64,000 nucleotides of DNA from NCBI GenBank assembly GCA_964519615.1, contig CAZFIM010000004.1, forward strand, positions 10,086 through 74,085. Reading direction: 5' to 3'. The notes under the pieces are model-generated. The model did not search any database. It saw only the letters and a program-made list of their open reading frames with translations, and was not told the origin of the DNA. This document shows positions 13,100 through 44,121 of the stretch, piece after piece; the stretch's first letter is position 1; the number at the start of each line of letters is the position of its first letter. The position numbers and the translations under genes are program-made. The DNA comes from an uncultured Dehalococcoidales bacterium. GTDB lineage: Bacteria > Chloroflexota > Dehalococcoidia > GIF9 > UBA5629.

Positions 13100-13138
13100 C
13101 GGCATATTTACGCTGAACATTACACTGCTATATCGTTT

Positions 13139-14064: not shown

Positions 14065-14079
14065 GAACCCTTGCGTATT

Positions 14080-16027: not shown

Positions 16028-16156
16028 TGTACCCTCCTTAAATATTTATTACTTCACAAATTACTTAACGAGTTAATAAAAAAATCATCTAACCGTAAGA
16101 CTCCATCCGAACTTTAATCCGTTCTGGGCAATCAGCATAACATATTGTCTGAAATG

Positions 16157-17593: not shown

Positions 17594-17723
17594 TAATAAG
17601 TCCTCCTATCGTCAAAAAAGGTACATGAAGTATACACCTATTTACACACAAACCGTTAGTTGAAGTCTTCTATCAGACTATACCGCTGCAAGTATAATAA
17701 ACCGATTTTACGGCATATTTTAT

Positions 17724-20234
17724 CTACAGATCATCACATTTTGTAATTTCGATCAAACAGGAGTTAGATGCCATTCCTGCGCAGTTCTGAGAAAGTATAC
17801 GAGAAGGAGTCAAAATACTCACACAACCTCCCCTGTCTGTACTGCCCGCCGTACCCACCTGAAGCGGATCATACTTTGCACAACTACCATAACAATGTAC
17901 CACGCCGGGCCTCACTCTCTCCGTTAATTGGGCAATGCCTAATACAGAGCCTCTCTCGTTATAGAGCTTCACAATGTCACTATTTTTGATACCGCGTATT
18001 GCTGCATCTGCCGGGTTAATACGCACTGTCCTATAATCATACCCGCCCTTGTTGATCCTGTTATTGGGGATAGCATCAATCCATTTGTTATGAGTTTCAT
18101 GATGGGTATGATATGACGAACGCGGATGAGGGGAGATGAGCTGAAGAGGATATTGAGCGGTTTGTGTTGACTGGTACCCCTCCCAACTCGGTATATAGCG
18201 CGCCATAGGCGGGCGCTCGGTATCGTCAGGCATATATTTAGTCAGACTCTGTGAAACATACTCTATTTTACCGCTCTCGGTTCCCAGTTCCTTAGCTTTT
18301 CCGGTGCCTGTTTTGGGATTATTGTCAGGGGTATCGCATTCCCTGCCCTCATAATACCACCGCAGCGCCGGTGTGCGCTTGTAATCAGGCGGCAGCGGCA
18401 CAACAAAATAGCCCTTTTCCCTGAATGTTTCCCAGGGAACATAATCCGGCAGCGAAGAGTTGTCAAACGCAACCCTGACCCAATCCTCCATAGTCTTGCC
18501 TTCCGTATACGCATCTTTAAATCCCAGGCGTTCAGCTAATGCGGAGTAAATATCATAGTCTGACTTCGATTCCCCTAAAGGCTCAATACATTTTTTCTGG
18601 TAGACCACCACACGATGGTTCGTTGCGGTACTTTGATCGTGCACATATCCTCCGCATTCACCTGACAGGCTGATGTCAGGCCTTTCGAAGTTGGTGCAGG
18701 CCGGCAGCACGATATCAGCAAATCCGGTGGAGTTATTCCACCAGCAGTCCTGTACCACAAAACATTCAATACCGGGACTCTGCAGCAGATGTACCCACTT
18801 ATTAGTCTCGGTCATACTGCCGATAAAAGAGCTGCCGTGGCGGTAGTACATGCGGCACTCGGAATGGTCTTTTTCCGGATAGGTAAAACGGTGGAACTGG
18901 TTGAGCGAAGAACCCCTCTTTTTTTCGAACATCCAGCTTTTAGGCGGGGTAAGAATAGCATCCGGCATCAGGTTGCGGTAAAGACGCTGCGTTACCGGAT
19001 TGACTATTGTTCCTCGCTGAATGCTCTTTTCCGCATATAGATCTATACCACCGTAGGCATAACCCGGAAAGAAGAAATCGCGGTTGAAAGGTGCGCCGTT
19101 TGCGCTCGACCACAAATTCACACCGGGCTTGCCCATACCCTGCATCGCCAGCAAATATACCATGAGCCTTGCCCATTCGGTGCCGTAAGCCTGGCGGCAG
19201 GCACCGCCTCCCAGACAGAAAGGATCGACCATAGTCCGTTTGGACGCCCATTCACGAGCAAGAGCCGTAATCACGCGGGCTTTAATACCGCAGATATTCT
19301 CTGCCCAACCAGGCGTTTTCTCCACACCGTCGGTCTTACCCATTATATGCTTTTTCCACTCATCGAAGCCCAGCGTACGATTACTAACATATTCTTTGTC
19401 ATAAGTATTCTCTTTCAGCCAAACATAGGCGATCGCCTCCGCCAGCGCTGCATCGGTCCCCGGCCGGGGAGCAAGCCACTTGTAAGCATGAATACAACTG
19501 GTATAGTTGTTATAAGGATCAATAAATATTTGCCGTATACCAAGCTTCCTCATCCACAGCCGCCAGATGGCAGCCTCCTGTCCGCCATATAACCCATGGG
19601 TAGAATCAGGGTCTGAGCTCCAGTGAATAAGCAGATCGGTATTCTGCAGACAATCCTCTAAAAGGTCATAATGCTCAGGCATCCCCAGCCGCCAGTAGAA
19701 TCCGTAGGCATGAGCCGCACCCCAATACCAGCCTTCCCAGCTATCCGGATTGGGATCGATCATGGTGAATCCCAGCATATGAAAAAAACGGAAAAACACG
19801 CTGAAGTGATAGCCCAAAATACCCCAGTTATGGTGTGATGAACGGGTGCCGGTAATAGCCTCCTTGCCGTACTTCTTCTGAATACGTTTCATCTCTCCGG
19901 CCACTATAGCGAGGGCCTCATCCCAGGATATGCGCCGGTAGGAAGCTCTGCCTCTGTTTTCGGGATGGCGTTCCCCGTCAGGATTGAAGTCCCTCCTTAT
20001 CATTGGGTATTTGATACGGTTTTCAGAATAAATACGGCGGCGGTCGGCAATAGTAAACGGGGCAACTGTAGCTTTACGCGGCGGTACAAAACTTTGTCCC
20101 CGTGCTGAGATAGTCCAGGACGGAGCATCCGATTCATCCAAAACAAGCGGACGAATGCGAGTTATTCTACCGTCCTCTACATGCACCAGCACCGGACCGC
20201 CAACCGTACAGTTTGTATATATCTTTTCAGACAC
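17724..20234 (-). CDS. DMSO-reductase-family Mo-bisPGD enzyme, pyrogallol transhydroxylase large subunit (AthL)-like
   Basis: TNCTVGGPVLVHV, APSWTISARG, SSHHNWG, NPDSWEGW, GGGACRQAYGTEWAR, ADIVLPACTNFER, SPHPR, DRGGCVSILTP. GTG start with AAGGAG SD. Confidence 0.88.
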   Translation of the reverse strand: MSEKIYTNCTVGGPVLVHVEDGRITRIRPLVLDESDAPSWTISARGQSFVPPRKATVAPFTIADRRRIYSENRIKYPMIRRDFNPDGERHPENRGRASYRRISWDEALAIVAGEMKRIQKKYGKEAITGTRSSHHNWGILGYHFSVFFRFFHMLGFTMIDPNPDSWEGWYWGAAHAYGFYWRLGMPEHYDLLEDCLQNTDLLIHWSSDPDSTHGLYGGQEAAIWRLWMRKLGIRQIFIDPYNNYTSCIHAYKWLAPRPGTDAALAEAIAYVWLKENTYDKEYVSNRTLGFDEWKKHIMGKTDGVEKTPGWAENICGIKARVITALAREWASKRTMVDPFCLGGGACRQAYGTEWARLMVYLLAMQGMGKPGVNLWSSANGAPFNRDFFFPGYAYGGIDLYAEKSIQRGTIVNPVTQRLYRNLMPDAILTPPKSWMFEKKRGSSLNQFHRFTYPEKDHSECRMYYRHGSSFIGSMTETNKWVHLLQSPGIECFVVQDCWWNNSTGFADIVLPACTNFERPDISLSGECGGYVHDQSTATNHRVVVYQKKCIEPLGESKSDYDIYSALAERLGFKDAYTEGKTMEDWVRVAFDNSSLPDYVPWETFREKGYFVVPLPPDYKRTPALRWYYEGRECDTPDNNPKTGTGKAKELGTESGKIEYVSQSLTKYMPDDTERPPMARYIPSWEGYQSTQTAQYPLQLISPHPRSSYHTHHETHNKWIDAIPNNRINKGGYDYRTVRINPADAAIRGIKNSDIVKLYNERGSVLGIAQLTERVRPGVVHCYGSCAKYDPLQVGTAGSTDRGGCVSILTPSRILSQNCAGMASNSCLIEITKCDDL

Positions 20235-20817
20235 AAAAAGACTCCTTCGCTAACGAAATTTGCAGCATCCTGAAAACCGGTAGCTTAGCAGTGACTTCTT
20301 TTTCAAACTACATCCATCTTCAGCACTCATGAAGGCAGTCCTGCAAGAAATATCCGCAACGGCTCAAACTGAGTGAAAAAACAAAAAGGGCTGCAACAAG
20401 CAAATGCCGCCCTCCTCTATTTTACACTATCAAATGGTAGTACATTCAACTACGCAGGACAAGCACGGTATTCAGAAACAAGACCATTGTGCAATACAAA
20501 CAACCATCCTGCCGTATATAAATTCACCTTTGACGGATAAATAGTCAGAACCCCCACGTTTTTCTATTGCCAAACCTGCTGCAACACACTTGAATATCTG
20601 TATTGCTGACACTTGGTTTGCTAAAGTGAGAATTAAATATACAATCTATTCTTCGTTTTAGCAGCAATACAGTAACGAATATATGAACACAATAATTTTA
20701 ACTTACGAAAGTGGCGATGAATACACATATTTTATCATATTAAACGGTGAGTATCTACAGATCGGAACAAATATACTGTATTATCATTGCTATTTTCTCG
20801 CTTCTATAGTATATTTT

Positions 20818-21741
20818 ATGGATATGATAGATGCCACTGACCGCAAAATTATTCTGGCGCTGCAAAAAAATGGTCGTTTAAGCAATGCTTCTCTTGCCCA
20901 CATTGCCGGAGTCAGCACATCTACAGTGGCTAAGCGCGTTGAACACCTCCTCGAGAGCGATACTATCAGAATCAGGGCAGTACCCAACCCCCGCAAGCTT
21001 GGTTATTACGCCGATGCGTTCATTACAATGGATGTCGACCTGCTTAAGATCGATGAGATATGTGCTCAACTCAAACCTATTTTCAATGTAAACTTCATTC
21101 ATACATGCTTTGGCCGTTTTGACATACTACTTATCGTTTTTTTCCCCACCTGGGAAATTCTGCACAGCTTTGTAAAAGATCGCCTTGCTCACATTGAAGG
21201 TGTACGGCATATAGAAACCTTTTCTTTCAAAGACATCGTTAAGCGCCTGGAAAATATTTTCTCTGAACCAGAGCAAAAGTCGCCTGCAGTACCAAGAGAT
21301 GAGCTGGACTTCCAGCTTATGAACGAGCTGGTTATAGATGGAACAGCTAGTTATAAGAATCTGGCAAGCAAAACCGGCGCCAGTATCCCGACGATTGCCA
21401 GACGCATTACCAATCTGCTCAATAAAGGGGTGATAAAAATTATTGCCCTGCCGAATCCATCCAGAGTTGGCTATATTCACGGTGCGGTTGTCGGTATACG
21501 GGTCCAAACCGGTAAAATTGAAAACATATGCCAGCAGCTTGCGAAAAAAAAGGAAGTACACTTTGTTTTTACCTTGATCAACGGTTTCGATATATTAATA
21601 GGCATCCACAGCAGCACCCCGGAAGAAATGTACTACTTCATCAAGAATTTCCTTGCACACATTGACGGCATCATCGATATTGAGACTTTCATCCGTGCTG
21701 AGATACAGAAACGTTATTACGGATGGATGCTTGAAGACTGA
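20818..21741 (+). CDS. tandem (two-repeat) Lrp/AsnC-family regulator
   Basis: Two wHTH+RAM units (IDATDRKII..GR.S; DELDFQLM..GTASY). Start placed at ATG 20818 (or 20824) because the ORF-track N-terminus is not family-like. Confidence 0.85.
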   Translation: MDMIDATDRKIILALQKNGRLSNASLAHIAGVSTSTVAKRVEHLLESDTIRIRAVPNPRKLGYYADAFITMDVDLLKIDEICAQLKPIFNVNFIHTCFGRFDILLIVFFPTWEILHSFVKDRLAHIEGVRHIETFSFKDIVKRLENIFSEPEQKSPAVPRDELDFQLMNELVIDGTASYKNLASKTGASIPTIARRITNLLNKGVIKIIALPNPSRVGYIHGAVVGIRVQTGKIENICQQLAKKKEVHFVFTLINGFDILIGIHSSTPEEMYYFIKNFLAHIDGIIDIETFIRAEIQKRYYGWMLED

Positions 21742-23348: not shown

Positions 23349-23419
23349 TGTTGACCTCGAGTCGCGGGCCTTTTTGCTGCTTTAGCTCCGAAAATTGTAA
23401 CTGCATCGGGTAAAGGCAG

Positions 23420-24412
23420 TTAATACCCTCTCTTCTTATTAACCAGCTTGATAAGTCTTTTACCGCTCAGATATCTCTTCAGGTTCTCACAAAAGATATC
23501 TGTGGCGACATCATAGTAATTTTCCAGTCTGCCGGCAAGGTGGGGCGTGATAATCACATTGGGAAACTGCCAGAGGCGGCTGTGCGGTGGTAGAGGTTCC
23601 TCAGCGAACGTGTCCAATCCCGCACCGGCGATTATATTATTCTCAAGCGCCCATATTAGCGCATCCTCATCGATTACACTACCCCTGGCGATATTGACAA
23701 GAAAAGCCCCCGGTTTCATCGATTTCAATTCCCGCCGCCCAATGAGATTGACCGTCTCCGTTATTGATGGAACGGCAAGCACCACAAAGTCACTTTGTGC
23801 AAGCAGTTCATTCATCCGTGATGATGGCAGCAGCAGATCAACATTTCTTCCTCCGGTGACCTCACGGACCGAACGTCTGGTACCCAGCACCTTCATTCCA
23901 TATGCTTTGGACATGCGTGCGATCTCTTTTCCTATATTTCCCAGTCCCACGATTCCGATAGTCTTACCGCAAATTAACATGGGAATGAACCTTTCCCATC
24001 TCTTCTGCTCCTGCATTTTAAGTGAAAAGGGCGAGCGTTTGGCAAACATCGATATCATGGTGAATACAAGCTCGGTAATCTGGATACCGTGCATACCGCT
24101 GGTATTGGTTACTATTACGGGACTTTTAAAGATATCGGCGTATATTTCCTGGTCAACTCCCGCCAGTACGGTTTGGATCCATTTCAACCGCGGGGCCCTT
24201 CCGATAAGGTCCTCGGGCGGCAGTAAGCCGTACACGATATCGGCACGGGAAAGAATAACATCGAACTCAGCTTTGCGGCTGTAATCACCCCCCTGCTCAG
24301 CAGCATTCAACTCAGCAGCATCCACTACCTTAAAGAGGGGACTGACCGCGGCAATGCGTGCCTTATTGCTATCATCCAGTTTGCAGGCGATAACGATGGT
24401 AAGCTTATCCAT
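23420..24412 (-). CDS. D-2-hydroxyacid dehydrogenase family
   Basis: GIVGLGNIG, GTRRS (NADP-type), VNIARG, LDTFAEEPL, ITPHLAG. AAGGAG SD. Confidence 0.9.
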   Translation of the reverse strand: MDKLTIVIACKLDDSNKARIAAVSPLFKVVDAAELNAAEQGGDYSRKAEFDVILSRADIVYGLLPPEDLIGRAPRLKWIQTVLAGVDQEIYADIFKSPVIVTNTSGMHGIQITELVFTMISMFAKRSPFSLKMQEQKRWERFIPMLICGKTIGIVGLGNIGKEIARMSKAYGMKVLGTRRSVREVTGGRNVDLLLPSSRMNELLAQSDFVVLAVPSITETVNLIGRRELKSMKPGAFLVNIARGSVIDEDALIWALENNIIAGAGLDTFAEEPLPPHSRLWQFPNVIITPHLAGRLENYYDVATDIFCENLKRYLSGKRLIKLVNKKRGY

Positions 24413-24605
24413 AATACTCCTTATTACAGGTCTTTATTGTAGCGTACCGAAATCATGAGTACCTTTGCAACCTCACAGCGGCTTTATTTTTTTTCAATCT
24501 TCGTAAAGCTGCCCGTCAAGCTTTTTTTACCCGGGGGATTCACTGGGTTATAATTGCTCATATACCTGTAAAAGGAGCAGAAAAAGAACCATGGGTTGAA
24601 GACCG

Positions 24606-25271
24606 ATGGACATGAGTCTCGTGCAAGGACTCACGGAAAAACAGACCCGGGATAAAGAACTCTACCTCAGCAAGCTGGTTCTTTTCCTTCAATCCGCCGG
24701 CATCGACGCTTCCTTCAACCATGAGACGGTGCTCAGTCTTTATAAAACGGTGAGAGAGAATGAACCGGTCATAAACGTAACAGGCCAGTATATCAGTAAG
24801 ATCACCTTGCGCACGCGGTTATTTGCCTACTGCGGCTCATGGAAAAGCATTTCATTCTTTGATTATGAGTCCTTGCTGACAACATCTCCACCCCCGCGGT
24901 TCTGCGGTAAAATGAAGGCCTATGTCAGACCCGTCGTACAAGGCCGTTTTCTGGGAATATTCGGAGGCAGGGTCGCTGCAGTCAAATGGGCGGGCGGGGA
25001 GCTGGCAGAACTGCTCAATAGTGACAGCGGGCTTGCAGAAAAGCTTTTTGCATTATCGGGCAGCTATGGTTACCCCGATGTCATCGTTCAGTTCAGAGAT
25101 ACAGCTGTTGCCGAGATATCGGGACCTCAGTTCGATTCACCGCCACCTTTCCTTAGTAATGTTATGTCATATCCCGATCTGCCGGTACAAAAAGACGACT
25201 TCTTCTATGCCTTCGGCCTCTATAACACCATATCCCGCTACCTGAGCCGACTGGCCGATGACGACGTATAA
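24606..25271 (+). CDS. hypothetical protein
   Basis: 221-aa ORF filling the gap between neighbours; TATAAT at about 24549; no motif recognised. Confidence 0.6.
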   Translation: MDMSLVQGLTEKQTRDKELYLSKLVLFLQSAGIDASFNHETVLSLYKTVRENEPVINVTGQYISKITLRTRLFAYCGSWKSISFFDYESLLTTSPPPRFCGKMKAYVRPVVQGRFLGIFGGRVAAVKWAGGELAELLNSDSGLAEKLFALSGSYGYPDVIVQFRDTAVAEISGPQFDSPPPFLSNVMSYPDLPVQKDDFFYAFGLYNTISRYLSRLADDDV

Positions 25272-25443
25272 ACCTACTTACTTTCGTTACCGCATAAACG
25301 GAAGACATATATTACACTGATGCTCAATTATTGCCCCACAAGATGTTGAAAGACCTCAAGATGCAGATACGGTCGATAAACCTTTCATTTGCTTAGACGT
25401 TCTTATACTAAAGAGCAATGGCCAGGGGGAACAAATAGTCATC

Positions 25444-25656
25444 ATGAAACAAATTAAGTTACCGTTCCGGAAACCACAATTAAGTGAGGTGCCGCCGCTC
25501 AAAGAAATGTTGGCTCCTTGCCCGATATGCGGAGGTACAACCGATATCAATTGGTCGGGACATATCGCCTGCCATAGCTGCGGACAGGAATGGAAGCTCA
25601 GTGGCGTTCCGCTGCCTGATGCCGGTGGCCAGGAAGGTCTTTTCTTTCAGTTCTAG
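25444..25656 (+). CDS. small Zn-ribbon-like protein
   Basis: CPICGG...CHSCG (two CxxC motifs) in 70 aa. Confidence 0.5.
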   Translation: MKQIKLPFRKPQLSEVPPLKEMLAPCPICGGTTDINWSGHIACHSCGQEWKLSGVPLPDAGGQEGLFFQF

Positions 25657-25794
25657 ATTTGTGCTTTTGCACGGGCCGGGTCGTCCGGCACATGTCCTCT
25701 ACCAATTACGGCCATGGCCGCTAACAACCATTGTTCAATCAAATAATAGAGGCCGTCCATAGATTCACCATAGACACCGCCTGCTTTACGTTGC

Positions 25795-26361
25795 CTATTT
25801 ATACACAGTTTGTTCCTGCCGAATATAGATATCACAGCCCGGTGCATCGGGATAATCAAATATCAGCGCATCGTCGGGAAACGGGCGCAGTTTGATAAAC
25901 ATCATCACATCCCCGATACCAGCGGCCGTGAGAATACCGCCCAGCACGGTGAGCAAAAGTACATTGGCGGCAATTCCGACAATGAGCGGTACTGCGCCGG
26001 TAAGCAGGATGGGAAGAAGAAGCGCTATCCTCACACCCTTCAGCACAACAGGTTTGCGGTAGTGTGTATAGAAACTCATATAGCGTAACATGAAACCAAA
26101 CCTGAACTCCGCAGGAGAAGCTTTTGCAAACAAAAGTAAACCGGCCGCATGCAGCAGCTCGTGCAGTACAAAACCGGCCAGTAACAGCAATAATAACAGC
26201 ATGACACTTGCTATTGTCAGAGTATAGTCAATGTGCTGCCAGATGACAATTTGAACCGTAATACCTGCTGCCATAAGGATTATTGTCGCCAGTGTTCCGA
26301 ACATCTGCAGCTTTTGGCTGGAGAGTTTAATACTGTGTTTTCGATATTCATCCATATTCAT
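25795..26361 (-). CDS. DUF3267-like membrane zincin (putative metalloprotease)
   Basis: TM helices around HELLH, FRFG, ALLLP, AAGIGD. Start placed at ATG 26361, just after a TATACT -10. Confidence 0.75.
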   Translation of the reverse strand: MNMDEYRKHSIKLSSQKLQMFGTLATIILMAAGITVQIVIWQHIDYTLTIASVMLLLLLLLAGFVLHELLHAAGLLLFAKASPAEFRFGFMLRYMSFYTHYRKPVVLKGVRIALLLPILLTGAVPLIVGIAANVLLLTVLGGILTAAGIGDVMMFIKLRPFPDDALIFDYPDAPGCDIYIRQEQTVYK

Positions 26362-26481
26362 GACAGTCAATAGTATAAAGGATATTCGGTTCTGATACAT
26401 CCGGCCGTAGTAACCTGTGATAGAATTAATTTTACCATCGACTTTCGCAGACAGCAGCAAATAACTATCACAGGAACTATC

Positions 26482-27648
26482 ATGACATCGATACGCAAAA
26501 GCAAGTCTATCCTCTACAGCGACAGGCCTCTTGGCCCCCTGCCCATGCACCGCATCAAGCGGGTTGAACGGCCGACCACGCTCATTACCGATGAGGTGCA
26601 GCGCATAGATGCACGAAAGACGGCACTATTGCAAGCAGCCGACGGCAGTTACGGAGAAGCGGTAAAAAAGGCGTCAGTGCCTTTCCTGCCTATGAAATAT
26701 CCCATCTCGGCCGCCATAGCAGAGGTTAAAGATAAAATGGCGTCGATAAGAGAAAAAGAAGTGGACGGTATCGCAAGACCGGTCAATACAGATCCTGCCG
26801 TCCTGAGCCGCCATATCAAGTCCCTTGGCTATTTTTTGGGCGCCGATATTATGGGTATCTGCCGCCTGCCGTATTACGCAATCTACTCCCATGATAGAGA
26901 CGGCAATTCCGTAGATATCGAATATAAAAATGCCATCATGATGGTTATGCGCAAGGAGCCGCATACGCTGGCTGCTTCTACTGGGAATGATTGGATAGGA
27001 GACGCTGTTAGTTTTCAGTCGTACACCAGGCTTGCTCTGGCAACTGAGATAATGGCATGTTATATCAAAAGAATCGGCTATCCCGCCTCACCGCAGAATA
27101 TGGTTTCAGGTTATCATGTCCTTTTACCGCCTCTATTACTGTGGGCGGGGATCGGCGAGGTAGCCCGCACCGGCATCATACTCAACCCCTTTTTGGGCAT
27201 GGCCTATAAGGCAGCCGCTGTATTGACAGATATGCCGCTGGAGCCTGATATGCCCATCGATTTCGGCCTGCAGAATTTCTGCAGCCTTTGCCGTATATGC
27301 GCAGATGTCTGTCCCAGCAAAGCCATATCGTCACAAGACAAGGTATTGTACAACGGCTACAAAACGTGGAAGCTTAAAGAGAAAAACTGCGCTGTCTACA
27401 GCGTGACCAATAATACAGGTACTATTTGCCAGATATGCGCCAAGGCCTGCCCCTGGACTAATCCTCTCACCTGGCCACACAATACCGTACGACGTATGGT
27501 ACAGCATTCCGCTCTTGCGGCCAGAGTAGCTATCGCAGCCAGTAAGCTCACCGGCATCAACAGAGGCAATGCCGAGCAGCAATGGTGGTTCGATATGCAC
27601 TATGATAATAACGGCAACCTGGAGATATTGGACCGCGGCGAACAATAA
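26482..27648 (+). CDS. reductive dehalogenase-like cobalamin/2x[4Fe-4S] protein, cytoplasmic catabolic type
   Basis: IKSLGYFLGADIMGICR, WAGIGEVARTG, LNPFLG..K, LTDMPLEPDMPIDFGLQNFCSLCRICADVCP, C-X12-CQICAKACPW, WWFD. No Tat RRxFLK signal. Confidence 0.85.
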   Translation: MTSIRKSKSILYSDRPLGPLPMHRIKRVERPTTLITDEVQRIDARKTALLQAADGSYGEAVKKASVPFLPMKYPISAAIAEVKDKMASIREKEVDGIARPVNTDPAVLSRHIKSLGYFLGADIMGICRLPYYAIYSHDRDGNSVDIEYKNAIMMVMRKEPHTLAASTGNDWIGDAVSFQSYTRLALATEIMACYIKRIGYPASPQNMVSGYHVLLPPLLLWAGIGEVARTGIILNPFLGMAYKAAAVLTDMPLEPDMPIDFGLQNFCSLCRICADVCPSKAISSQDKVLYNGYKTWKLKEKNCAVYSVTNNTGTICQICAKACPWTNPLTWPHNTVRRMVQHSALAARVAIAASKLTGINRGNAEQQWWFDMHYDNNGNLEILDRGEQ

Positions 27649-27653
27649 CTGCT

Positions 27654-27869
27654 CTATCCCGAATCTGCATCATACTGAAAGACTTCTTCTAGAGCGGCGC
27701 CCAGAGCACGGGCTATTTTGAATGCAAGCTCAATCGAAGGTACATATTTGTTCTGCTCCAGGGCAATGATAGTCTGGCGCGTACAGCCGGCGCGCAGAGC
27801 CAGTTCCTCCTGAGTCATCTCATCGCAGGCAAAACGCAGCTTTCTGATACGGTTGGTCACTGCAGGCAC
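27654..27869 (-). CDS. XRE/Cro-type HTH regulator
   Basis: NRIRKLR...MTQEELA...[24 protein letters not shown]. Confidence 0.9.
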
Positions 27870-27872
27870 GGC

Positions 27873-28310
27873 TTATCTTCCTCCCTGCGCTTGCCGGTAG
27901 CCCAGCACAATACCCAGAGAAAGCGCAAGGGTACTGATGATAAGAGTGGATAGTAAAATCAGGGTCAGAAAAATAACCGGGACCTGTCCCTGCTCATGAT
28001 AGACCTCGGTCAGAACGATCACCCAGGCTGCCAGAGAAAATACGGCTGCCGCCCACTGCGCTTTAGGCGCCTTACCCAGAACAAGCCTGTCCCGTTCATC
28101 CAACTGCTGCGGTTTCCTGAGCGTAATGTTCACCAATATCAGATATATCAAAGGTACAGCTATCCATATAACGTAGACAATTATCCTGAATCCGCAATCC
28201 TGCTCGAAAGCGCTGATACCACCTTTGACTATAAAGACCGCAATAATGACACAGGAAAGAATGAGCCCTATCACAAGGCTGTACAATGCACGTTTTTGCA
28301 CCGGCGCCAT
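27873..28310 (-). CDS. membrane protein (DUF2178-like) paired with the XRE regulator
   Basis: Four hydrophobic helices, DERD motif. GAAGGAG SD favours ATG 28310 over 28337. Confidence 0.7.
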   Translation of the reverse strand: MAPVQKRALYSLVIGLILSCVIIAVFIVKGGISAFEQDCGFRIIVYVIWIAVPLIYLILVNITLRKPQQLDERDRLVLGKAPKAQWAAAVFSLAAWVIVLTEVYHEQGQVPVIFLTLILLSTLIISTLALSLGIVLGYRQAQGGR

Positions 28311-28342
28311 TGATGTCCTCCTTCTGTAGTTATCCATACTAT

Positions 28343-28402
28343 AGTAACTTCAATATAACATATTGTAATTTATTATTTACATATTGTCAACTATTTATTA
28401 CA
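28343..28402 (-). promoter_or_regulatory. promoter overlapped by three tandem operator palindromes
   Basis: TTGACA (28385-28390), 17 bp, TACAAT (28362-28367) on the minus strand; WGTMA-N8-TWACA boxes at 28343, 28364 and 28385. Confidence 0.8.
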
Positions 28403-28573
28403 TCCCTATCACATTTTTCTGATCGCTTACCGGAGAAGAATTACACATCTACAGTATTCTCATCCAGTACCCCCACCAGTACCTTTTACTCATCTCCAAA
28501 ATAGACTATCGGCCTATTTACGGCAAGCTGCTCCCCTGAGATACTGAAAGGGCACCCTCGTAGTAGTAAATTT

Positions 28574-30280
28574 ATGAAGAAAAGCGGCAAATCAAAAAAC
28601 CAGCCGGTTATCGCTTTTACGGAATTCAGGCAGCTTGCGGATAAGCATTCCGAGACCGATATCGAATACCGCAAGATGAAAGCGTTCTATGATATCGCCA
28701 GGGCAACTACCGGCAGCCTAGATCTACAGGAAACACTGGAGAAGGCACTGCATGAATTGCTGGATATCACGTCTTCTGACAAAGGCATTTGCTATCTGCT
28801 GGATGCGGACAGGGGTATACTCACAGCCAGAGCGCAGGAAGGATTTCAGAAGATAAAAAATATACATCCGGTAGGACTTGGACACGAGGAATTGCGCTTG
28901 CTGCTGCAGTGGAAATCGCCTTGTCAGGAGCCCTCGGAGATAGTAGGCCCGACAACGCTTCAGTGTCTGCTTAAGCCGCTGGAGCGGACAGCAGAAGATC
29001 CATACCTGTTTGTCCCTTTTACAGGAAGAAGTCATATGATTACGCTCATGCTCCTGGGGCGTAAAGGAGTCAATATTTATACCAGAGAAGATCTCGCTTT
29101 GACAGGAGCGTTAGGCGCTGAATCAGGGGTGTGCTTTGAGAATGCTCTCGCTTTTGAGAATGTCAGCCGGCTTGCTACCAGAGATATGCTCACAGAGCTT
29201 TATAATCAGAATTTCTTTTTACAGCGTTTAAATGAAGAGGTAGAACGCAGTGCGCGCTACGGGCAGAAATGCTCGTTCATCATGCTGGAACTGATAGATC
29301 TGGATGTATTTAATAATATCATGGGGCATCCGTGCGGCGAAGCTACGCTTAAGGATGTAGCAGATTGTCTGCGCAAATGCCTCAGGCATATGGATATAGC
29401 CTGCCGGTACGGGAGCGCCTCTTTCGGACTTATACTGCCGGAAACAGGCAGCAAAGAGGCGTATCAGGTGGCGGAGCGCATACGGCAAGCGCTTCAGAAG
29501 CGGTCTATTTTACATGAGACTCTAGATGATACCAGGCTTGCCTATAATATAGGCGTTACCTCTTTTCCCGGCGACGCGCCCTCAGCAGAGGGTCTGATAC
29601 GGAGGGTAGAGATAGCACTGGGAGCCGCAAAACAGAAGGGCGGAAACCGGACCGTTCAGGCATCCGAGGTGCTGGGCACCATCGGAAGTGCGAAACGCTC
29701 GGTCTGGGAAGTAGCGGAGTATCTGGAGGCAGCGGGAGTCAATACCATTTACGGTATGGCAGCGGCAATCGATGCCAGAGACCCCTGCACCTCCAATCAC
29801 TCCCGTAATGTTGCTGGTTATGCCGTCACCATTGGAAATGCGCTGCATCTCCCTTGTGGGGAGATGCAGCGTCTGCGAAGCGCCGCTCTAATACATGATA
29901 TTGGCAAGATCGGTATACCTGATTCCGTGATCAATAAGCCCGGCCCTCCCAACGAAGCGGAATGGAAAATGATACAAAAACATCCTGAACTTGGCTCGGT
30001 CATAGTCAGCCATATGCCGGACCTGAGTCCTTGTGTTCCTATCATACGCCATCATCATGAGTGGTATGACGGCAGCGGTTATCCGGATGGACTTGAAAGC
30101 AATGAAATACCCTATGAATCACGAATCATCGCGGTCGCCGAAGCCTACGATGCTATGATCAACCCCCGCTCATATCATCAACCGCTCTTGCCTGAAGAAG
30201 CTGTTGAGGAACTGCGCCGCTGCTCAGGAACCCAGTTCGATCCGGTAATCATCGCCGCCTTTCTGCCCTCACTGGTATAA
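28574..30280 (+). CDS. GAF + degenerate GGDEF + HD-GYP protein
   Basis: RDMLTELYN, RYGSASF in place of GGDEF, RHMD I-site, HSRNVA, HDIGK, HHEWYDGSGYP, GTQFDP. Confidence 0.88.
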   Translation: MKKSGKSKNQPVIAFTEFRQLADKHSETDIEYRKMKAFYDIARATTGSLDLQETLEKALHELLDITSSDKGICYLLDADRGILTARAQEGFQKIKNIHPVGLGHEELRLLLQWKSPCQEPSEIVGPTTLQCLLKPLERTAEDPYLFVPFTGRSHMITLMLLGRKGVNIYTREDLALTGALGAESGVCFENALAFENVSRLATRDMLTELYNQNFFLQRLNEEVERSARYGQKCSFIMLELIDLDVFNNIMGHPCGEATLKDVADCLRKCLRHMDIACRYGSASFGLILPETGSKEAYQVAERIRQALQKRSILHETLDDTRLAYNIGVTSFPGDAPSAEGLIRRVEIALGAAKQKGGNRTVQASEVLGTIGSAKRSVWEVAEYLEAAGVNTIYGMAAAIDARDPCTSNHSRNVAGYAVTIGNALHLPCGEMQRLRSAALIHDIGKIGIPDSVINKPGPPNEAEWKMIQKHPELGSVIVSHMPDLSPCVPIIRHHHEWYDGSGYPDGLESNEIPYESRIIAVAEAYDAMINPRSYHQPLLPEEAVEELRRCSGTQFDPVIIAAFLPSLV

Positions 30281-30391
30281 GCTCCTTAAAATATAGTACA
30301 TAGTAACTATTTTCTCTATTTCTCCTCTTTTCTCCCCCCATATGCTCTGTCTGTGATAAAATAGTGAAGAATTACGCGCTGGGAATGAGCA

Positions 30392-31354
30392 ATGAGCACG
30401 CCGCATCAGGTTATCCTTGAAGAGCAGAATTTGAATATCAACTCCATCAAGCATGGCAAGTTGACATGGTATTATATAGAGAAGCCAACCGTTCAGGAGG
30501 TCGCCTTTCTTTCACAGAATTTCAGTTTTCATCCCCTTGACCTGGACGATATACTCAGCCGCGTGCAGCGGCCCAAGATAGACGAATATGAACACTATCT
30601 TTTTCTCGTGCTCCATTTCCCTGTTTTCAATAAGGAAAACAGGGTTACCACCTCCAGCGAAGTGGATATTTTCATCGGAGAGAACTATGTAATCACCGTG
30701 CACTGCTCAGCAGACTTGAAACCGCTTTCCAAATTGTTTAAGGAGTGCCAGATAGATCTCGATACCAGGAAAAAATTCATGAGCTACAGCTCCGGTTACC
30801 TGCTCTACCATATCCTGGACCGGCTGGTGAACTACTGTTTCCCTATTCTGAATAAAGTAACCGATAATATCGAGAAGGTCGAAGATCTCATCTTCACCCG
30901 GACAGTGCCGGAAACCGTGCGGGAGATCCTTATGATTCGCAGAGATCTCATCTCCTTCCGGCGTGTCATTCATCCGCAGATAAGCGTGGTGGATTCGCTG
31001 GAGCATGAGGATTATCCTTTCCTGAAAGAAGATCAAGAGATTTACTTCGGCGATATCGCCGACCACACACACAAGATATGGGATGCACTGGAGGACTGTA
31101 AAGAGGTAGTAGACGGACTGGCTGAGACCAGCAATTGGCTTACCTCTCACCGGATACAGGAGGTAATGCGCATTCTCACCATCTTGACCGCTATCCTTGC
31201 TCCGGGTACGCTTATAGCCAGTATTTACGGCATGAATGTAGAACTGCCGGGCGGAGGGTCCGGCAGCTTGATTCCTCTTGTCATCATTCTCTTTATTATG
31301 CTGGGGATCGCCGTAACCATGCTGGTCTTCTTCCGCCGCCGCAACTGGCTCTAA
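30392..31354 (+). CDS. corA: CorA-family Mg2+/Co2+ transporter
   Basis: FHPLDLDD, RPKIDEY, YFGDIADH, YGMNV signature, two C-terminal TM helices. Confidence 0.93.
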   Translation: MSTPHQVILEEQNLNINSIKHGKLTWYYIEKPTVQEVAFLSQNFSFHPLDLDDILSRVQRPKIDEYEHYLFLVLHFPVFNKENRVTTSSEVDIFIGENYVITVHCSADLKPLSKLFKECQIDLDTRKKFMSYSSGYLLYHILDRLVNYCFPILNKVTDNIEKVEDLIFTRTVPETVREILMIRRDLISFRRVIHPQISVVDSLEHEDYPFLKEDQEIYFGDIADHTHKIWDALEDCKEVVDGLAETSNWLTSHRIQEVMRILTILTAILAPGTLIASIYGMNVELPGGGSGSLIPLVIILFIMLGIAVTMLVFFRRRNWL

Positions 31355-31387
31355 TACCTTTGCCTGTGTATAATAGCAAGCTGTATC

Positions 31388-32056
31388 ATGAACGTTTCAT
31401 ATAGACTGGTAGTTCTGGCGGCGCTTTTCGTCACCTGTATAATAACTGCTAATATACTGATAGTAAAACAGATAGCTGTCGCAGGCTTAACGCTGCCTGC
31501 CGCCATCATTATTTTTCCGATAAGCTACATCATCAGCGATATTTTGACCGAAGTCTACGGGTACCGTCAGGCCCGGCGCATAATCTGGCTTGGTTTTGCC
31601 TGCAACCTTATAGCCGTCGTTGCCTTTTGGCTCGGCAAAATCCTGCCGCCGGCGCAAGTGTTTCAGGGTCAGGAAGCTTATGAAAGCATCCTGGGCAGTA
31701 CACCTCGCTTCCTGCTTGCGTCTTTTGCCGGATATATTGCCGGTGAATTCGCCAACTCATTTATACTGGCTAAAATGAAAATCGCAACAGGCGGCAGATG
31801 GCTCTGGATGCGTACCATCGGTTCCACACTGGTGGGAGAAGGAATAGATACGGTCTTTGCGCTGACAATCGCTCTGGCAGGGATACTGCCGTGGCCGGTA
31901 CTGGGTGGCATGATTATCGCGCACTGGCTGCTTAAAACAGCGTATGAAATTATCATTACTCCCCTCACCTATTATGTGGTAAACTACCTCAAGCGCAAAG
32001 AGGATATGGACGTGTACGATGTGGGAACCGATTTCAATCCCCTGCAAATAAATTAA
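31388..32056 (+). CDS. yhhQ: queuosine precursor transporter (VUT/YhhQ family)
   Basis: FPISYIISDILTEVYG, TPRFLLAS, WMRTIGST..G..DT, KTAYE. Confidence 0.88.
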   Translation: MNVSYRLVVLAALFVTCIITANILIVKQIAVAGLTLPAAIIIFPISYIISDILTEVYGYRQARRIIWLGFACNLIAVVAFWLGKILPPAQVFQGQEAYESILGSTPRFLLASFAGYIAGEFANSFILAKMKIATGGRWLWMRTIGSTLVGEGIDTVFALTIALAGILPWPVLGGMIIAHWLLKTAYEIIITPLTYYVVNYLKRKEDMDVYDVGTDFNPLQIN

Positions 32057-32568
32057 TGAGTGAACGGTGGTCCGGGGATAGCAGTATGGCGCCGAGATTT
32101 ATTGTCGACCATAATGTAGGCAAACTTGCCAGGTGGCTGCGGATGATGGGCTACGATTCGCTGCTGTTTACAGGGGCCGATGACGGTATTATGGTAAAGA
32201 CGGCACTACAGCAGAAACGTATAATTCTGACCAGAGACAACGGGATCGCAGCACGCCGTCTGGCAGCAGAGGGAAAGATTACCGTCATTCTTATAAAAGG
32301 AGGGGAGCCGGCCAGACAGCTCAGGCAGGTAGCGGAGGCTCTCAAACTGAAACTGAAATATCGTCCCTTTACACTCTGTCTGGAGTGTAATTGCGAACTT
32401 CAAGCACGGACAAAGGAAGAGGTACGCGGCCGTGTGCCGCCTCATGTTTTCAAGACCCGTTCCAGCTACATGGAATGCCTCTCTTGTCACCGCGTCTATT
32501 GGCGCGGCACTCACTGGGAGGCAATGTGTGATACATTGGAGAGATTTGAAAAGGAAATAGCAAGTTAA
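32056..32568 (+). CDS. Mut7-C RNase domain protein (DUF82)
   Basis: RFIVDHNVGKLARWLRMMGYD, ILTRD, CLECN...CLSCHRVYWRGTH. Confidence 0.88.
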   Translation: MSERWSGDSSMAPRFIVDHNVGKLARWLRMMGYDSLLFTGADDGIMVKTALQQKRIILTRDNGIAARRLAAEGKITVILIKGGEPARQLRQVAEALKLKLKYRPFTLCLECNCELQARTKEEVRGRVPPHVFKTRSSYMECLSCHRVYWRGTHWEAMCDTLERFEKEIAS

Positions 32569-32588
32569 TATAAGGGCAGGATAAGCTT

Positions 32589-34160
32589 ATGAAAGTTGTC
32601 ACCGCTGAACAGATGAAAATGATTGATACCACAGCAGCCGAGCAAGGGCTGCCGACAGAGATATTGATGGAAAACGCAGGACGGGCGGTAGCGGAACAGG
32701 TCCGCCAGCACATGGGGCAGGTGGCGGGGAAAAACATACTGATACTGGCCGGACCCGGGAACAACGGCGGGGACGGTCTGGTGGCAGGGCGTTATTTAAG
32801 CGATTGGGGTGCTGATGTCACGCTCTATCTGCTCGGCCCGCGTTCCGAGGGCGATAAAAACCTGGCAATGGCAATAGAGCGCGAGGTGCTCGTACTGTCA
32901 GCGGCGGAGGACAAGCGTTTAGGCCAGCTTGATAAACATCTGACATCTGCACACACGATCATAGATGCCGTCTTCGGCACCGGCAGGACCAGAGCGATAT
33001 CGGGCATTTATAAAGATACGCTCGTAAGAATTATCAACGTAAAAAACAGGCGCCCTGAAATTATGGTTGTTGCCGTCGATATGCCTTCCGGGCTGGATGC
33101 CAATACCGGAGCGGTAGACGCCAGTACGCCGTTTGCAGACATTACAGTAACGCTGGGAATGCCCAAGCCTGGACTGTACAATTTCCCCGGCGCAGAAAGA
33201 GCAGGAAAGGTCGTTATTGTCGATATCGGCATTCCGCAGCAGCTTTCCAATGACATCATCACGGAATTGATAACAGAGGACTGGGTCAGGTCCATACTGC
33301 CTAACCGCCCTGCCAGCGCCAATAAGGGTACGTTCGGAAAGGTCATGACGGTAGCTGGCTCTATTAACTATATGGGCGCTGCCTATCTGGCCTGCATGGG
33401 AGCGGCGCGAACCGGGGCAGGGCTGGTTACCCTGGCAACGGCAAAAAGCCTTCAGACCGCGCTTGCCGCCAAACTGACTGAAACAACCTACCTTCCTCTT
33501 GCTGAAGCCACAGCAGGAAGAATTGCTCCAGAAGCAGCCTCTACTCTGGAAAAGAATATAGGGGGCTACAATGTTCTGTTGATGGGATGTGGGCTGGGAC
33601 AGCACCCGGCTACAGTGGAATTCGTCAGATCCGCACTGCTGGAAAAAAACATGACCGCCAATAAATCGGTCGTATTGGATGCTGATGCACTCAACGCACT
33701 GGCCACCATCCCGCAATGGTGGCAGAGACTGAAAGGGAATGCTATACTAACCCCGCATCCGGGAGAGATGGCGCGGCTGACCAAGGCTGATCTGGAGGAG
33801 GTCCAGCAGAACAGGCTGGAGTCCGCCCGGGGCGCGGCCGCCTGGTGGAAACAGGTGGTTGTGCTGAAAGGCGCCTATACCATAGTTGCGGCACCGGATG
33901 GCAGGGCGAAAATCAACCCCTGTGCGAGCGCAGCTCTGGCCAGCGCCGGCACAGGGGACGTACTGGCAGGCATTATCGCCGGGCTTGCCGCACAGGGGCT
34001 CGATACGTTCGATGCAGCCGCCTGCGGCGTATATCTGCACTGCCGTGCAGCCCAGACCGCAGCAGCAATCATGGGAGACAGCGGAATACTGGCAGGAGAT
34101 CTACTGCCGCTGCTGCCGAAAGTAATACATACTATAAAACACCCTGAAGAGGACAGGTAG
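32589..34160 (+). CDS. nnr: bifunctional NAD(P)HX epimerase/dehydratase (NnrE-NnrD)
   Basis: LMENAG, GPGNNGGDG, VDMPSG, NKGTFG, VLDADAL, LTPHPGEM, LASAGTGDVL. Confidence 0.93.
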   Translation: MKVVTAEQMKMIDTTAAEQGLPTEILMENAGRAVAEQVRQHMGQVAGKNILILAGPGNNGGDGLVAGRYLSDWGADVTLYLLGPRSEGDKNLAMAIEREVLVLSAAEDKRLGQLDKHLTSAHTIIDAVFGTGRTRAISGIYKDTLVRIINVKNRRPEIMVVAVDMPSGLDANTGAVDASTPFADITVTLGMPKPGLYNFPGAERAGKVVIVDIGIPQQLSNDIITELITEDWVRSILPNRPASANKGTFGKVMTVAGSINYMGAAYLACMGAARTGAGLVTLATAKSLQTALAAKLTETTYLPLAEATAGRIAPEAASTLEKNIGGYNVLLMGCGLGQHPATVEFVRSALLEKNMTANKSVVLDADALNALATIPQWWQRLKGNAILTPHPGEMARLTKADLEEVQQNRLESARGAAAWWKQVVVLKGAYTIVAAPDGRAKINPCASAALASAGTGDVLAGIIAGLAAQGLDTFDAAACGVYLHCRAAQTAAAIMGDSGILAGDLLPLLPKVIHTIKHPEEDR

Positions 34161-34181
34161 AATAAGAGCCGGAGCGCAATA

Positions 34182-34970
34182 ATGTTACTGGCAATCGATA
34201 TAGGTAACTCGAATATCGTTCTGGGCGTTTTCAACGGCAAAGAGCTCATAGGAACATGGAGGATAGTGACCGCTGTCCACCGCATGCCGGATGAATATAC
34301 CAGCCTGATCCTCAGCTTCTTCAACCGCTCCGGCATCGATGCTGAAGATATAAGGGATGCTGTCGTGGGGAGCGTCGTACCTCCGCTCGTTCCGGTATTT
34401 ACGGAAGTATGCCAGCGAACGTTCTCCGTAACGCCTTTGATTGTGGAAGCAGGCATCAAGACCGGCATACGTATCAATATGGACAATCCCCGGGAAGTAG
34501 GCGCAGACCGCATTATTAATGCGGTGGGAGCCTATAAGCTTTACGGCGGCCCGGCTATTATCATAGATCTGGGCACGGCAACCACTTTCGATGTAATATC
34601 GGCGGACGGGACCTATATGGGCGGGGCTATTGCACCGGGTATCGCTATCGCCACGGAGGCCCTTTTTTCCCGTACAGCCGTACTACCGCGTGTGGAACTG
34701 GTACATCCCAAACGGGCTATCGGCACCAGCACTATAGCTGCCATGAATTCCGGCATCGTCTACGGCTATGTAGGACTTATCGAAGGACTGGTAGCACGTA
34801 TAAAAAAAGAATTAGGTGATAATCCCAGGGTTATCGCTACCGGCGGTTATGCTAAGCTTCTGTCGGCTGAAACATCTACCATAGATACGGTCGAACGGGA
34901 TATCACCATGGTGGGAATGCGTCTCATATATGAGATGAACAGAGACTACGACAAAGGGGAGGGGAAATGA
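34182..34970 (+). CDS. coaX: type III pantothenate kinase
   Basis: LLAIDIGNSN, VGADRI, IDLGTATTFD, GGAIAPG, IATGG. Confidence 0.95.
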   Translation: MLLAIDIGNSNIVLGVFNGKELIGTWRIVTAVHRMPDEYTSLILSFFNRSGIDAEDIRDAVVGSVVPPLVPVFTEVCQRTFSVTPLIVEAGIKTGIRINMDNPREVGADRIINAVGAYKLYGGPAIIIDLGTATTFDVISADGTYMGGAIAPGIAIATEALFSRTAVLPRVELVHPKRAIGTSTIAAMNSGIVYGYVGLIEGLVARIKKELGDNPRVIATGGYAKLLSAETSTIDTVERDITMVGMRLIYEMNRDYDKGEGK

Positions 34971-36163: not shown

Positions 36164-36320
36164 CCCGCCTGTATGGTGATTATTGCTTCAAGATGCTAAT
36201 ATTATGCGTTTTCAGCTATACTTAGTGATATTATTTTAACAGGCGGCAACTGCCGTTTTTAAGAGGCCGCTCCATAGAGGCCTGTTTATTCTAACCGTTA
36301 ATAAAGAGAAGGACCGAACC

Positions 36321-44090: not shown

Positions 44091-44121
44091 GGAAAAATAG
44101 AGAATAAAAAACTATTTCCGC

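Follow-up and report, generated by a model that had tools for sequence, protein, structure and literature searches.

Can a reductive dehalogenase homolog that consists of a single catalytic core still act as a dehalogenase, and which role would it have in the cell? This question is raised by an rdhA-like gene in a stretch of 64,000 nucleotides (the window; positions 10,086 to 74,085 of contig CAZFIM010000004.1) from an uncultured Dehalococcoidales bacterium. The gene is an intact open reading frame (ORF) of 388 codons plus stop. Sequence comparison and modeling make it probable that its product, the window RdhA, is a soluble cytoplasmic dehalogenase with a corrinoid and two [4Fe-4S] clusters that belongs to the short, simplified cytosolic clade of the family. 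It would act on halogenated phenolics in a catabolic or detoxifying role, fed by ferredoxin and probably as a homodimer.

The family identity of the protein was explored using profile and sequence searches. The NCBIfam model of reductive dehalogenases (TIGR02486) matched with 167 bits against a cutoff of 160.35, and the profile of epoxyqueuosine reductase (QueG; TIGR00276) reached 32 bits against a cutoff of 200; Pfam reported ferredoxin-type cluster motifs only. A phmmer search of the PDB placed NpRdhA (4RAS) first (E=1.9e-82), with residues 17-373 of the window RdhA aligned to residues 258-618 of NpRdhA, followed by PceA (8Q4H; E=2.6e-26, 96 bits) and QueG (E=1e-6). Moreover, residues 99-259 also matched the N-terminal domain of NpRdhA (residues 70-222) at 41.6 bits, which indicates that this domain of NpRdhA is a degenerate copy of the core. 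When this vestigial domain was searched for in the window, it matched only the core of the window RdhA itself. As judged from these alignments, the window protein corresponds to the catalytic copy of NpRdhA only. This agrees with a preliminary description of the locus, made from the sequence alone, which had recognized the catalytic half of NpRdhA and the lack of its N-terminal duplicated domain.

An AlphaFold2 model of the window RdhA was built on 50 homologs, with a predicted local distance difference test score of 70 and a predicted template modeling (TM) score of 0.76. The model gave TM scores of 0.82-0.83 with NpRdhA, 0.50-0.60 with PceA, and ∼0.37-0.41 with QueG, and the corrinoid-binding core fold is predicted to be present. 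Two Fe-S motifs, C267-x2-C-x2-C-x3-CP and C303-x12-C316-x2-C-x3-CP, were read from the protein, the second being of the RdhA type, and all eight Cys are invariant in the alignment of 50 sequences. These data bear on the possibility that the gene encodes a QueG or an inactive relic. The fold and the Fe-S motifs are common to QueG, some relatives are annotated as "epoxyqueuosine reductase" by the Joint Genome Institute (JGI), and the database copy of the gene is frameshifted. Identity with QueG was, however, ruled out as far as profile and fold can show, and in alignment and structure the window RdhA sides with NpRdhA, with its catalytic residues aligned. No RdhA paralog or queG was found elsewhere in the window. 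Given also that the frameshift in the database copy is an assembly error and that the ORF in the window is intact with conserved catalytic residues, a QueG or a relic is scarcely credible.

The assembly error concerns the sole public copy of the rdhA DNA, a JGI metagenome contig (L001) whose positions 1-14259 are 99.3% identical to positions 23381-37650 of the window. There the gene is split into pieces of 116 and 265 amino acids (aa) by one extra T in a T6 run. The two sequences differ by 27 indels over 14 kb, including homopolymer errors, which split at least four genes (those for RdhA, CorA, YjeF, and a GGDEF-HD protein). This homopolymer context and the indels that split other genes indicate that the rdhA frameshift arose in assembly, and the same indels show that the database gene calls of this organism are fragmented. 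The window frame preserves the conserved LGYFLGAD motif, which argues that rdhA is not a pseudogene, and that reading was rejected. An exact-sequence look-up of the 388-aa protein gave no match, its only public record being the 265-aa fragment. The start of the gene appears equally secure: the ATG at 26482 is the earliest possible start downstream of the preceding stop, so that a longer ORF is impossible, and the N terminus "..GILFEDGQLGPFPMHRLKRVDKPT" common to homologs supports M1 as the first residue. A hidden N-terminal domain was likewise excluded by this first start, by the divergent DUF3267 gene upstream, and by the match of the vestigial domain to the core only.

The window RdhA is predicted to reside in the cytoplasm. 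No Arg-Arg pair of a twin-arginine translocation (Tat, or TAT) signal occurs in its first 80 residues, no transmembrane (TM helix) segment was predicted (maximum 19-residue Kyte-Doolittle hydrophobicity, 1.32), and neither a reductase domain nor the vestigial N-terminal domain is present in the 388 aa. No gene for an RdhB, a ferredoxin, a flavodoxin, or a reductase was recognized among the neighbors of rdhA. An adjacent 154-aa protein with four TM helices was considered as an RdhB and rejected, since it is encoded on the opposite strand and matches no PDB entry, including PceB of 8Q4H; within 3 kb of rdhA, the only further small multi-TM ORF is an antisense artifact inside the gene. The preliminary description of a stand-alone cytoplasmic enzyme of 388 aa, with both Fe-S motifs and with no Tat peptide, rdhB, or reductase domain or neighbor, was thus borne out by motif, hydrophobicity, and neighbor checks.

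A respiratory RdhA that reaches the membrane via an unrecognized partner would be compatible with membership of the RdhA family and with the "RRGILF"-like N-terminal remnant of some relatives. This is, however, very improbable for a protein with no Tat motif, hydrophobic region, or TM helix and no RdhB-like gene within 3 kb, which has a Tyr-Lys dyad and not the respiratory Tyr-Arg and which groups with the cytosolic clade. The remnant itself was observed in several short RdhAs (L003, L076, P0005, and P0012), where "RRGILF" or "RRGVLL" stands directly before LGPFPM with no hydrophobic region after it, and it may be the relic of a Tat signal. The window RdhA reads KSKSILY at this place.

The active site was compared with that of NpRdhA by counting along the HMMER alignment, which is ungapped around the relevant positions (Table 1). 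In NpRdhA, Y426 and K488 form the proton-donor dyad, with no third residue; K488, R552, and S422 bind the substrate hydroxyl; F290, F310, P311, A419, and M423 form a hydrophobic wall; and the K488Q and R552L variants are severely impaired in activity (Halliwell 2020, PMC7565698). In the window RdhA, the dyad is retained as Y181 and K243, and both residues, together with R229, are invariant in the 50-sequence alignment and across the top 120 clusters, which are the best 120 of at least 572 clusters found to be similar to the window RdhA in a word-indexed protein search (E<=1e-10). The position of S177 is Ser in 119 of these 120 clusters, and the wall positions F290/F310/P311 correspond to L49/F68/P70. 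At position 552, Asn was counted in 69 of the clusters, Ser in 36, and Arg in 1. With Ser for Arg552 and a clade-wide Asp for Ala419, the pocket read from this alignment is unlike that of every characterized catabolic RdhA. Because of these two changes, the substrate is probably not 3,5-dihalo-4-hydroxybenzoate, and it may be a more hydroxylated halo-aromatic acid. Of the proton-relay residues listed in the preliminary description, Tyr426 and Lys488 stand, as does its reading of Ser at the position of Arg552. Its "Arg472" (GEVAR) does not: it is off by one, since NpRdhA reads S472-R473 and R473 aligns with R229, and a relay role for this residue is unsupported in the literature consulted.

The place of the window RdhA among its relatives was explored with neighbor-joining (NJ) trees on the shared core, with PceA as outgroup; the trees took in no DEH-C11, Tol2, Ros_A3X954, BhbA, or JtRdhA sequences. 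The respiratory enzymes in these trees have a Tyr-Arg dyad and Trp at the 552 position, and a TAT-bearing Y-K-R group adjoins the cytosolic enzymes, which divide into two clades. Clade A has the signature S-Y-K-R, with short forms at its base and with NpRdhA-like forms, self-sufficient long forms, and 450-aa alphaproteobacterial forms nested inside. Clade B comprises RdhAs of Chloroflexota, Desulfatiglandales, Firmicutes, and Acidobacteriota, including the window protein, and in this clade Arg552 is replaced and Ala419 is Asp. The window RdhA groups with two proteins from metagenome-assembled genomes (MAGs) of Dehalococcoidaceae, its nearest relatives, at 62-63% identity, in a subclade with Ser at position 307 (the Ser307 subclade). 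The valyl-tRNA synthetase (ValRS) encoded in the window is 68-72% identical to proteins of Dehalococcoidia/Chloroflexi MAGs, which puts the host with uncultured Dehalococcoidia-like Chloroflexota.

The preliminary description had set the protein in a class best known for respiratory Tat/RdhB enzymes. The architecture is nevertheless not unusual, as it is widespread, with at least 572 clusters and 80 loci, and already published (PMC4959651, PMC12219181). The top 120 clusters are all 345-419 aa long, the one exception being the 265-aa fragment of the window RdhA itself. The 80 loci were obtained by scanning GTDB species genomes for related rdhA genes, and every one with a callable ORF across the match encodes a short form, the ORFs being called by a crude longest-ORF script. 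These short forms measure ∼365-430 aa in Chloroflexota, 400-417 aa in Firmicutes (including Flavonifractor plautii ATCC 29863), and 445-460 aa in Alphaproteobacteria, and they also occur in Desulfatiglandales and Acidobacteriota. Clustering at 50% reduced the Chloroflexota family to a single representative, and the neighboring representatives were other short forms, NpRdhA-like proteins of ∼676-737 aa, and self-sufficient proteins of ∼1040-1090 aa. The last of these architectures gave distant matches only, with 32-34% identity to the window RdhA. Residues 258-618 of NpRdhA are 50-56% identical to the alphaproteobacterial short forms and ∼35-37% identical to the window RdhA.

The published descriptions fit the window protein well. 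In Hug 2013 (PMC3971608), RdhAs of aquifer Chloroflexi are closest to a protein of Desulfobacula toluolica Tol2; Wasmund 2016 (PMC4959651) describes a mostly Dehalococcoidia-derived RdhA clade that lacks TAT and RdhB and is sister to NpRdhA/BhbA; and Han 2025 (Microbiome, PMC12219181) names a "simplified cytosolic type" with a mean of 395 aa from Chloroflexota and Desulfobacterota that lacks the vestigial cobalamin-binding domain. The simplified cytosolic/DEH-C11 group is regarded there as not being a terminal reductase, and these articles contain no analysis of the pocket. By its length, its lack of TAT and rdhB, its Chloroflexota host, and its position as sister to NpRdhA/BhbA, the window RdhA appears to be a member of this simplified cytosolic/DEH-C11-type clade, and no essential difference from the published descriptions of the simplified cytosolic/DEH-C11/Tol2-like group was found.

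Comparison with the characterized enzymes is more mixed. Like NpRdhA (PDB 4RAS, 6ZXU-6ZY1), the window RdhA has the Tyr426/Lys488 dyad, Ser422, and two [4Fe-4S] clusters, lacks TAT and RdhB, and would need an external reductase. In contrast to NpRdhA, it lacks the ∼250-aa vestigial N-terminal domain, so that it is probably dimeric and not monomeric; it has Ser for Arg552, Asp for Ala419, and Phe for Met423; it falls in cytosolic clade B and not A in the NJ trees; and its host is an anaerobe-like member of the Chloroflexota, whereas that of NpRdhA is an aerobic alphaproteobacterium. The vestigial domain is considered a distinguishing feature of catabolic RdhAs (Fisher 2023, PMC10463259). Of the features used for catabolic RdhAs by Payne 2015 and Fisher 2023, the window RdhA has the dyad and Ser422, and lacks the vestigial domain and Arg552. 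BhbA and JtRdhA are self-sufficient, with a C-terminal PDOR-type reductase, whereas the window RdhA has neither reductase nor vestigial domain; the likeness lies in the cytosolic catabolic logic, since operons of Anaerolineae orthologs encode GalB-like and LigK-like lower-pathway enzymes.

PceA shares with the window RdhA the core fold, two Fe-S clusters, the catalytic Tyr, and a single core with no vestigial domain, and it is a homodimer; the window RdhA differs from the PceA type in lacking TAT and RdhB and in having Tyr-Lys instead of Tyr-Arg and Ser instead of Trp at position 552. T7RdhA and A6RdhA (PMC10008544) were considered as relatives and set aside, as they fall on the PceA branch. 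The Roseobacter debrominase Ros_A3X954 (AEM 2026), expressed in Escherichia coli, converts 2,6-dibromophenol to 2-bromophenol with methyl viologen (PMC13101508), and the same article refers to other TAT-less reductive dehalogenases (RDases) from the screen of Ng and Silver. Compared by description only, Ros_A3X954 is, like the window RdhA, short (Fe-S motifs at 283-345), TAT-less, and stand-alone; it differs in motif spacing and in carrying a match to the Pfam Dehalogenase model PF13486. It provides a precedent for in vitro activity of short, TAT-less, stand-alone RDases.

The gene contexts of the relatives point to the role of the short RdhAs. Across the 80 loci, a gene for a Liv-type substrate-binding protein was found in 34, at a median gap of 156 nucleotides (nt) to rdhA. 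Permeases are likewise encoded in 34 of the loci and ATPases in 37; two permease and two ATPase genes precede that of the substrate-binding protein. Codirectional catabolic genes follow rdhA in 11-15 of the 80 loci. They encode a PIG-L protein that corresponds to a GalB-type 4-oxalomesaconate hydratase (5CGZ, E=3.6e-63), an RraA-like 4-carboxy-4-hydroxy-2-oxoadipate (CHA) aldolase (NF006731, 188.5 bits, cutoff 179; 3NOJ), a two-domain extradiol dioxygenase (TIGR03211, 336 bits, cutoff 320), and a CHMI-type isomerase. The full arrangement is an operon of Anaerolineae/Chloroflexota (∼35 loci in L004-L049, for example, L010, L017, L021, and L025) with the order ThiS (not always present), two ATP-binding cassette (ABC) ATPases, two LivH/M permeases, substrate-binding protein, short RdhA, GalB-type hydratase, CHA aldolase, extradiol dioxygenase, and CHMI-type isomerase, often accompanied by genes for IclR and a BD-FAE esterase. 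As annotated, this operon combines import, dehalogenation, and meta-cleavage. No hydroxylase was recognizable among the recurrent, annotated neighbor families of these operons. We have not seen the Anaerolineae rdhA operon described in the literature consulted on this clade.

A second context was found in the window's own Ser307 subclade. In a cluster of Dehalococcoidaceae (L014 and L082-L085, from several assemblies; L082, positions 1-17137), RdhA is flanked by two molybdenum (Mo) oxidoreductases of ∼750 aa. Upstream, the order is CoA-transferases, a tripartite ATP-independent periplasmic (TRAP) transporter, an acetyl-CoA hydrolase/transferase-family protein, the first Mo-oxidoreductase, and RdhA. 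The second Mo-oxidoreductase follows, and after it come a Fer4/Pyr_redox_2 protein of 672 aa, a member of the M24 peptidase/creatinase family, a second RdhA paralog, and an amidohydrolase. The spacers at RdhA and the next two genes measure 13, 33, and 3 nt. This RdhA may receive its electrons from the 672-aa polyferredoxin/FAD-NAD(P)H oxidoreductase, a candidate donor. Other members are orphans, as is the window copy. These ortholog operons make a non-respiratory catabolic role plausible for the window RdhA, and they lend the same plausibility to the preliminary proposal of a non-respiratory enzyme with a different substrate.

The same contexts have to be weighed against a class III cobalamin reductase with no organohalide activity, which would act on polyphenols, for example by reductive dehydroxylation or by cleaving another C-O or C-N bond. 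The loss of Arg552, the clade-wide pocket Asp, and the lack of a PF13486 match would suit such an enzyme, and so would the occurrence of members in gut Firmicutes such as Flavonifractor plautii and in numerous habitats for which an organohalide load is not known. Moreover, the two Mo-oxidoreductases around the Dehalococcoidaceae RdhA belong to a broad family that, according to the abstract of PMC11887054, includes catechol dehydroxylases, and QueG shows that the same fold can serve a non-dehalogenating chemistry. On the other hand, neither the halide-side Tyr nor the Lys that partners it varies, Ser422 is almost always kept, and the nearest characterized relatives are all dehalogenases. The Anaerolineae operon also follows the logic of the BhbA cluster, where protocatechuate 4,5-cleavage takes up the product of dehalogenation (PMC10463259). 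We therefore regard a reductase of this kind as unlikely.

For the dehalogenase that we favor, the following mechanism is proposed. Low-potential electrons would pass from a ferredoxin or flavodoxin pool through the two Fe-S clusters to the corrinoid. The cob(I)/cob(II)alamin would attack the halogen of an imported phenolic substrate held by Ser177 and Lys243, and Tyr181 would protonate the carbon after removal of the halogen. The substrates would most likely be halogenated phenolic acids, and the role would be catabolic or detoxifying rather than respiratory. A homodimer is probable because the window RdhA has no counterpart of the vestigial domain, which in NpRdhA takes the place of the second PceA subunit; this domain mimics the monomer-monomer interface of PceA and makes NpRdhA monomeric (Fisher 2023, PMC10463259). 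Ferredoxin-dependent enzymes are encoded in the window, namely, a tungsten aldehyde ferredoxin oxidoreductase (AFOR) with an adjacent Fe-S protein and a DUF362-Fer4 protein. Since the Anaerolineae operons encode ring cleavage and show no recognizable hydroxylase among their recurrent, annotated neighbor families, a halogenated catechol-type acid is an attractive, if speculative, candidate substrate.

A more specific version of this proposal, which is possible though doubtful, holds that clade B, with Asp-Ser-Tyr-Lys-[Asn/Ser] at positions 419/422/426/488/552, is a distinct subfamily for halogenated catechol-type acids, ferredoxin-fed, homodimeric, and ancestral to the NpRdhA type. Its substrates would be compounds such as 5-halo-protocatechuate, halogallate, or chlorinated lignin or humic monomers, and not ortho-halophenols with a single hydroxyl, the second hydroxyl being held by the clade-specific Asp. 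Ring cleavage would follow dehalogenation directly, and this would account for Anaerolineae operons that encode a dioxygenase, a tautomerase, a GalB hydratase, and a CHA aldolase, with no hydroxylase recognizable among their recurrent, annotated neighbor families. The homodimer would have come first, and an internal duplication would later have produced the monomeric enzymes of the NpRdhA type.

Dehalogenation may alternatively serve mainly to reoxidize ferredoxin or other cofactors in the cytoplasm, as facilitated fermentation or detoxification with an indirect gain of energy. Such an electron sink was raised for TAT-less RdhAs of anaerobes by Wasmund 2016 (PMC4959651) and Jochum 2018, and it would agree with an orphan rdhA that has no catabolic partners and with the ferredoxin-linked enzymes of the window. 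Most relatives with enough contig, however, have rdhA in operons for uptake plus degradation, which points to carbon catabolism, and we consider the electron sink rather improbable.

Several observations weigh against a catabolic dehalogenase as proposed here. The TIGR02486 score only just clears its cutoff, PF13486 does not match the window RdhA, and the structural model is of moderate confidence, with residues 1-37 and 228-238 poorly predicted. The Arg552 required for NpRdhA activity is absent. The catabolic context comes from orthologs that are only 52-57% identical, whereas the window copy is monocistronic, and none of its own neighbors recurs beside relatives. The NJ trees carry no support values, and no biochemically characterized member of clade B was found, so that activity, cofactor, and substrate are all inferred, and the dimeric state and the electron donor are predictions.

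Table 1. Features of the rdhA-like gene, its product, and the adjoining genes, in window positions.
Feature	Position	Strand	Basis or remark
rdhA-like gene, short cytosolic reductive dehalogenase homolog	26482..27648	+	ORF, TIGR02486, NpRdhA match, fold model
AGGA Shine-Dalgarno	26472-26475	+	6 nt before the rdhA ATG; read directly from the sequence
N-terminal segment, residues 17-110, aligned to NpRdhA 258-355	26530..26811	+	phmmer alignment
Predicted corrinoid-binding core, ∼residues 111-260, with D174, S177, Y181, R229, K243	26812..27261	+	Alignment, model
D174 (NpRdhA A419)	27001..27003	+	Pocket site for second ortho substituent; Asp in 111 of the top 120 clusters
S177 (NpRdhA S422)			HMMER alignment
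F178 (NpRdhA M423)			HMMER alignment
Y181 (NpRdhA Y426), proton donor position, invariant	27022..27024	+	HMMER alignment
R229 (NpRdhA R473)			HMMER alignment
K243 (NpRdhA K488), dyad partner and hydroxyl ligand position, invariant	27208..27210	+	HMMER alignment
First [4Fe-4S] motif CSLCRICADVCP (C267-C277)	27280..27315	+	Pfam, motif reading, Cys invariance
Second, RdhA-type [4Fe-4S] motif C303-x12-C316-x2-C319-x3-C323-P	27388..27453	+	Motif reading, Cys invariance
S307 (NpRdhA R552), substrate hydroxyl ligand position	27400..27402	+	Ser within the subclade of the window RdhA; Asn within the clade that has the Anaerolineae operon
DUF3267 putative zincin peptidase, neighbor and not partner	25795..26361	-	Divergent upstream; start from the L001 gene call
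XRE-type helix-turn-helix gene, neighbor only	27654-27860	-	Convergent with rdhA
154-aa protein with four TM helices, neighbor only, not RdhB-like	27873-28337	-	Convergent; weak sub-threshold DUF6773 match

The immediate neighborhood of rdhA in the window was examined for partners (Table 1). The longest ORF of the DUF3267 gene (25795-26550, minus strand) overlaps the start of rdhA by 69 nt, and the start near 26361 leaves a divergent intergenic region of 120 nt, which probably holds both promoters. A GGDEF-HD-GYP gene comes next after the gene of the protein with four TM helices. A functional link of rdhA to these window neighbors was ruled out, given that they do not recur beside relatives.

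The preliminary description had also suggested that the enzyme prepares halogenated aromatics for a nearby catabolic block. The organization of the genes does not bear out this link, which is weak: rdhA is monocistronic and lies at least 6 kb from the block, and the DNA that separates them carries unrelated genes on both strands. The block encodes a pyrogallol-hydroxytransferase-like Mo enzyme, an HpaB-family protein, a short-chain dehydrogenase/reductase (SDR), 2-hydroxyacid dehydrogenases, a xanthine dehydrogenase (XDH)-family trimer, and a Liv ABC system, all of which score below equivalog cutoffs. The sole hint of a linkage is that homologous Mo enzymes lie near short RdhAs in 8 loci, with a pair of Mo and HpaB-like genes ∼6 kb from RdhA in one locus (L054).

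Within the block, positions 14080-21741 hold a minus-strand operon for the Mo enzyme (17724-20234), the HpaB/AbfD-family protein (16157-17593), the SDR (15269-16027), and a 2-hydroxyacid dehydrogenase (14080-15093), with a tandem AsnC/Lrp regulator (20683-21741) divergent from it. At 3994-13099, an enzyme of the xanthine dehydrogenase/4-hydroxybenzoyl-CoA reductase family (Mo, 2Fe-2S, and FAD subunits) adjoins the Liv-type ABC transporter; the Pfam check covered the substrate-binding protein of the latter, its other ORFs were assigned by position, and all matches in this region are likewise below the equivalog cutoffs.

Genes for tRNA-His(GTG) and tRNA-Arg(TCG) were found at 3500-3575 and 3690-3765, 23 kb from rdhA. 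According to Wasmund 2016 (PMC4959651), this tRNA pair adjoins this rdhA clade in 8 of 12 Dehalococcoidia contigs. The GC fraction is 0.38-0.50 over 1-32 kb of the window and ∼0.54 over 32-44 kb, where housekeeping genes (YjeF, CoaX, CoaBC, ValRS) begin. The tRNA pair and this profile suggest that rdhA may lie in a tRNA-flanked variable region.

Farther downstream, at 42912-49759 and 52435-54741, the window encodes the tungsten AFOR with an adjacent small ORF whose Cys motifs resemble those of Fe-S proteins (weak matches only), a TRAP transporter (with Pfam matches for DctP and DctM), and the DUF362-Fer4 protein. As annotated, these genes indicate a ferredoxin-based anaerobic metabolism. A two-domain catalase-peroxidase (KatG) is encoded in the same region, which suggests exposure to oxygen.

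As a type, the window RdhA is neither new nor rare, being a member of a known and widespread clade for which no characterized representative was found. It adds one more intact member to this clade and little else; what is new here is the pocket signature of clade B and the operon contexts of the orthologs. Among the rdhA homologs of subsurface and sediment Chloroflexota, short genes of the TAT-less kind rank with the most frequent. As no assayed member was found, the share of this clade in natural halogen and carbon cycling is a guess. Being soluble, 388 aa long, and free of a partner subunit, such an RDase would lend itself to expression and engineering as a minimal scaffold. For the family, the pocket signature, with Asp at position 419 and no Arg552, together with the conserved operon, narrows the candidate substrates.

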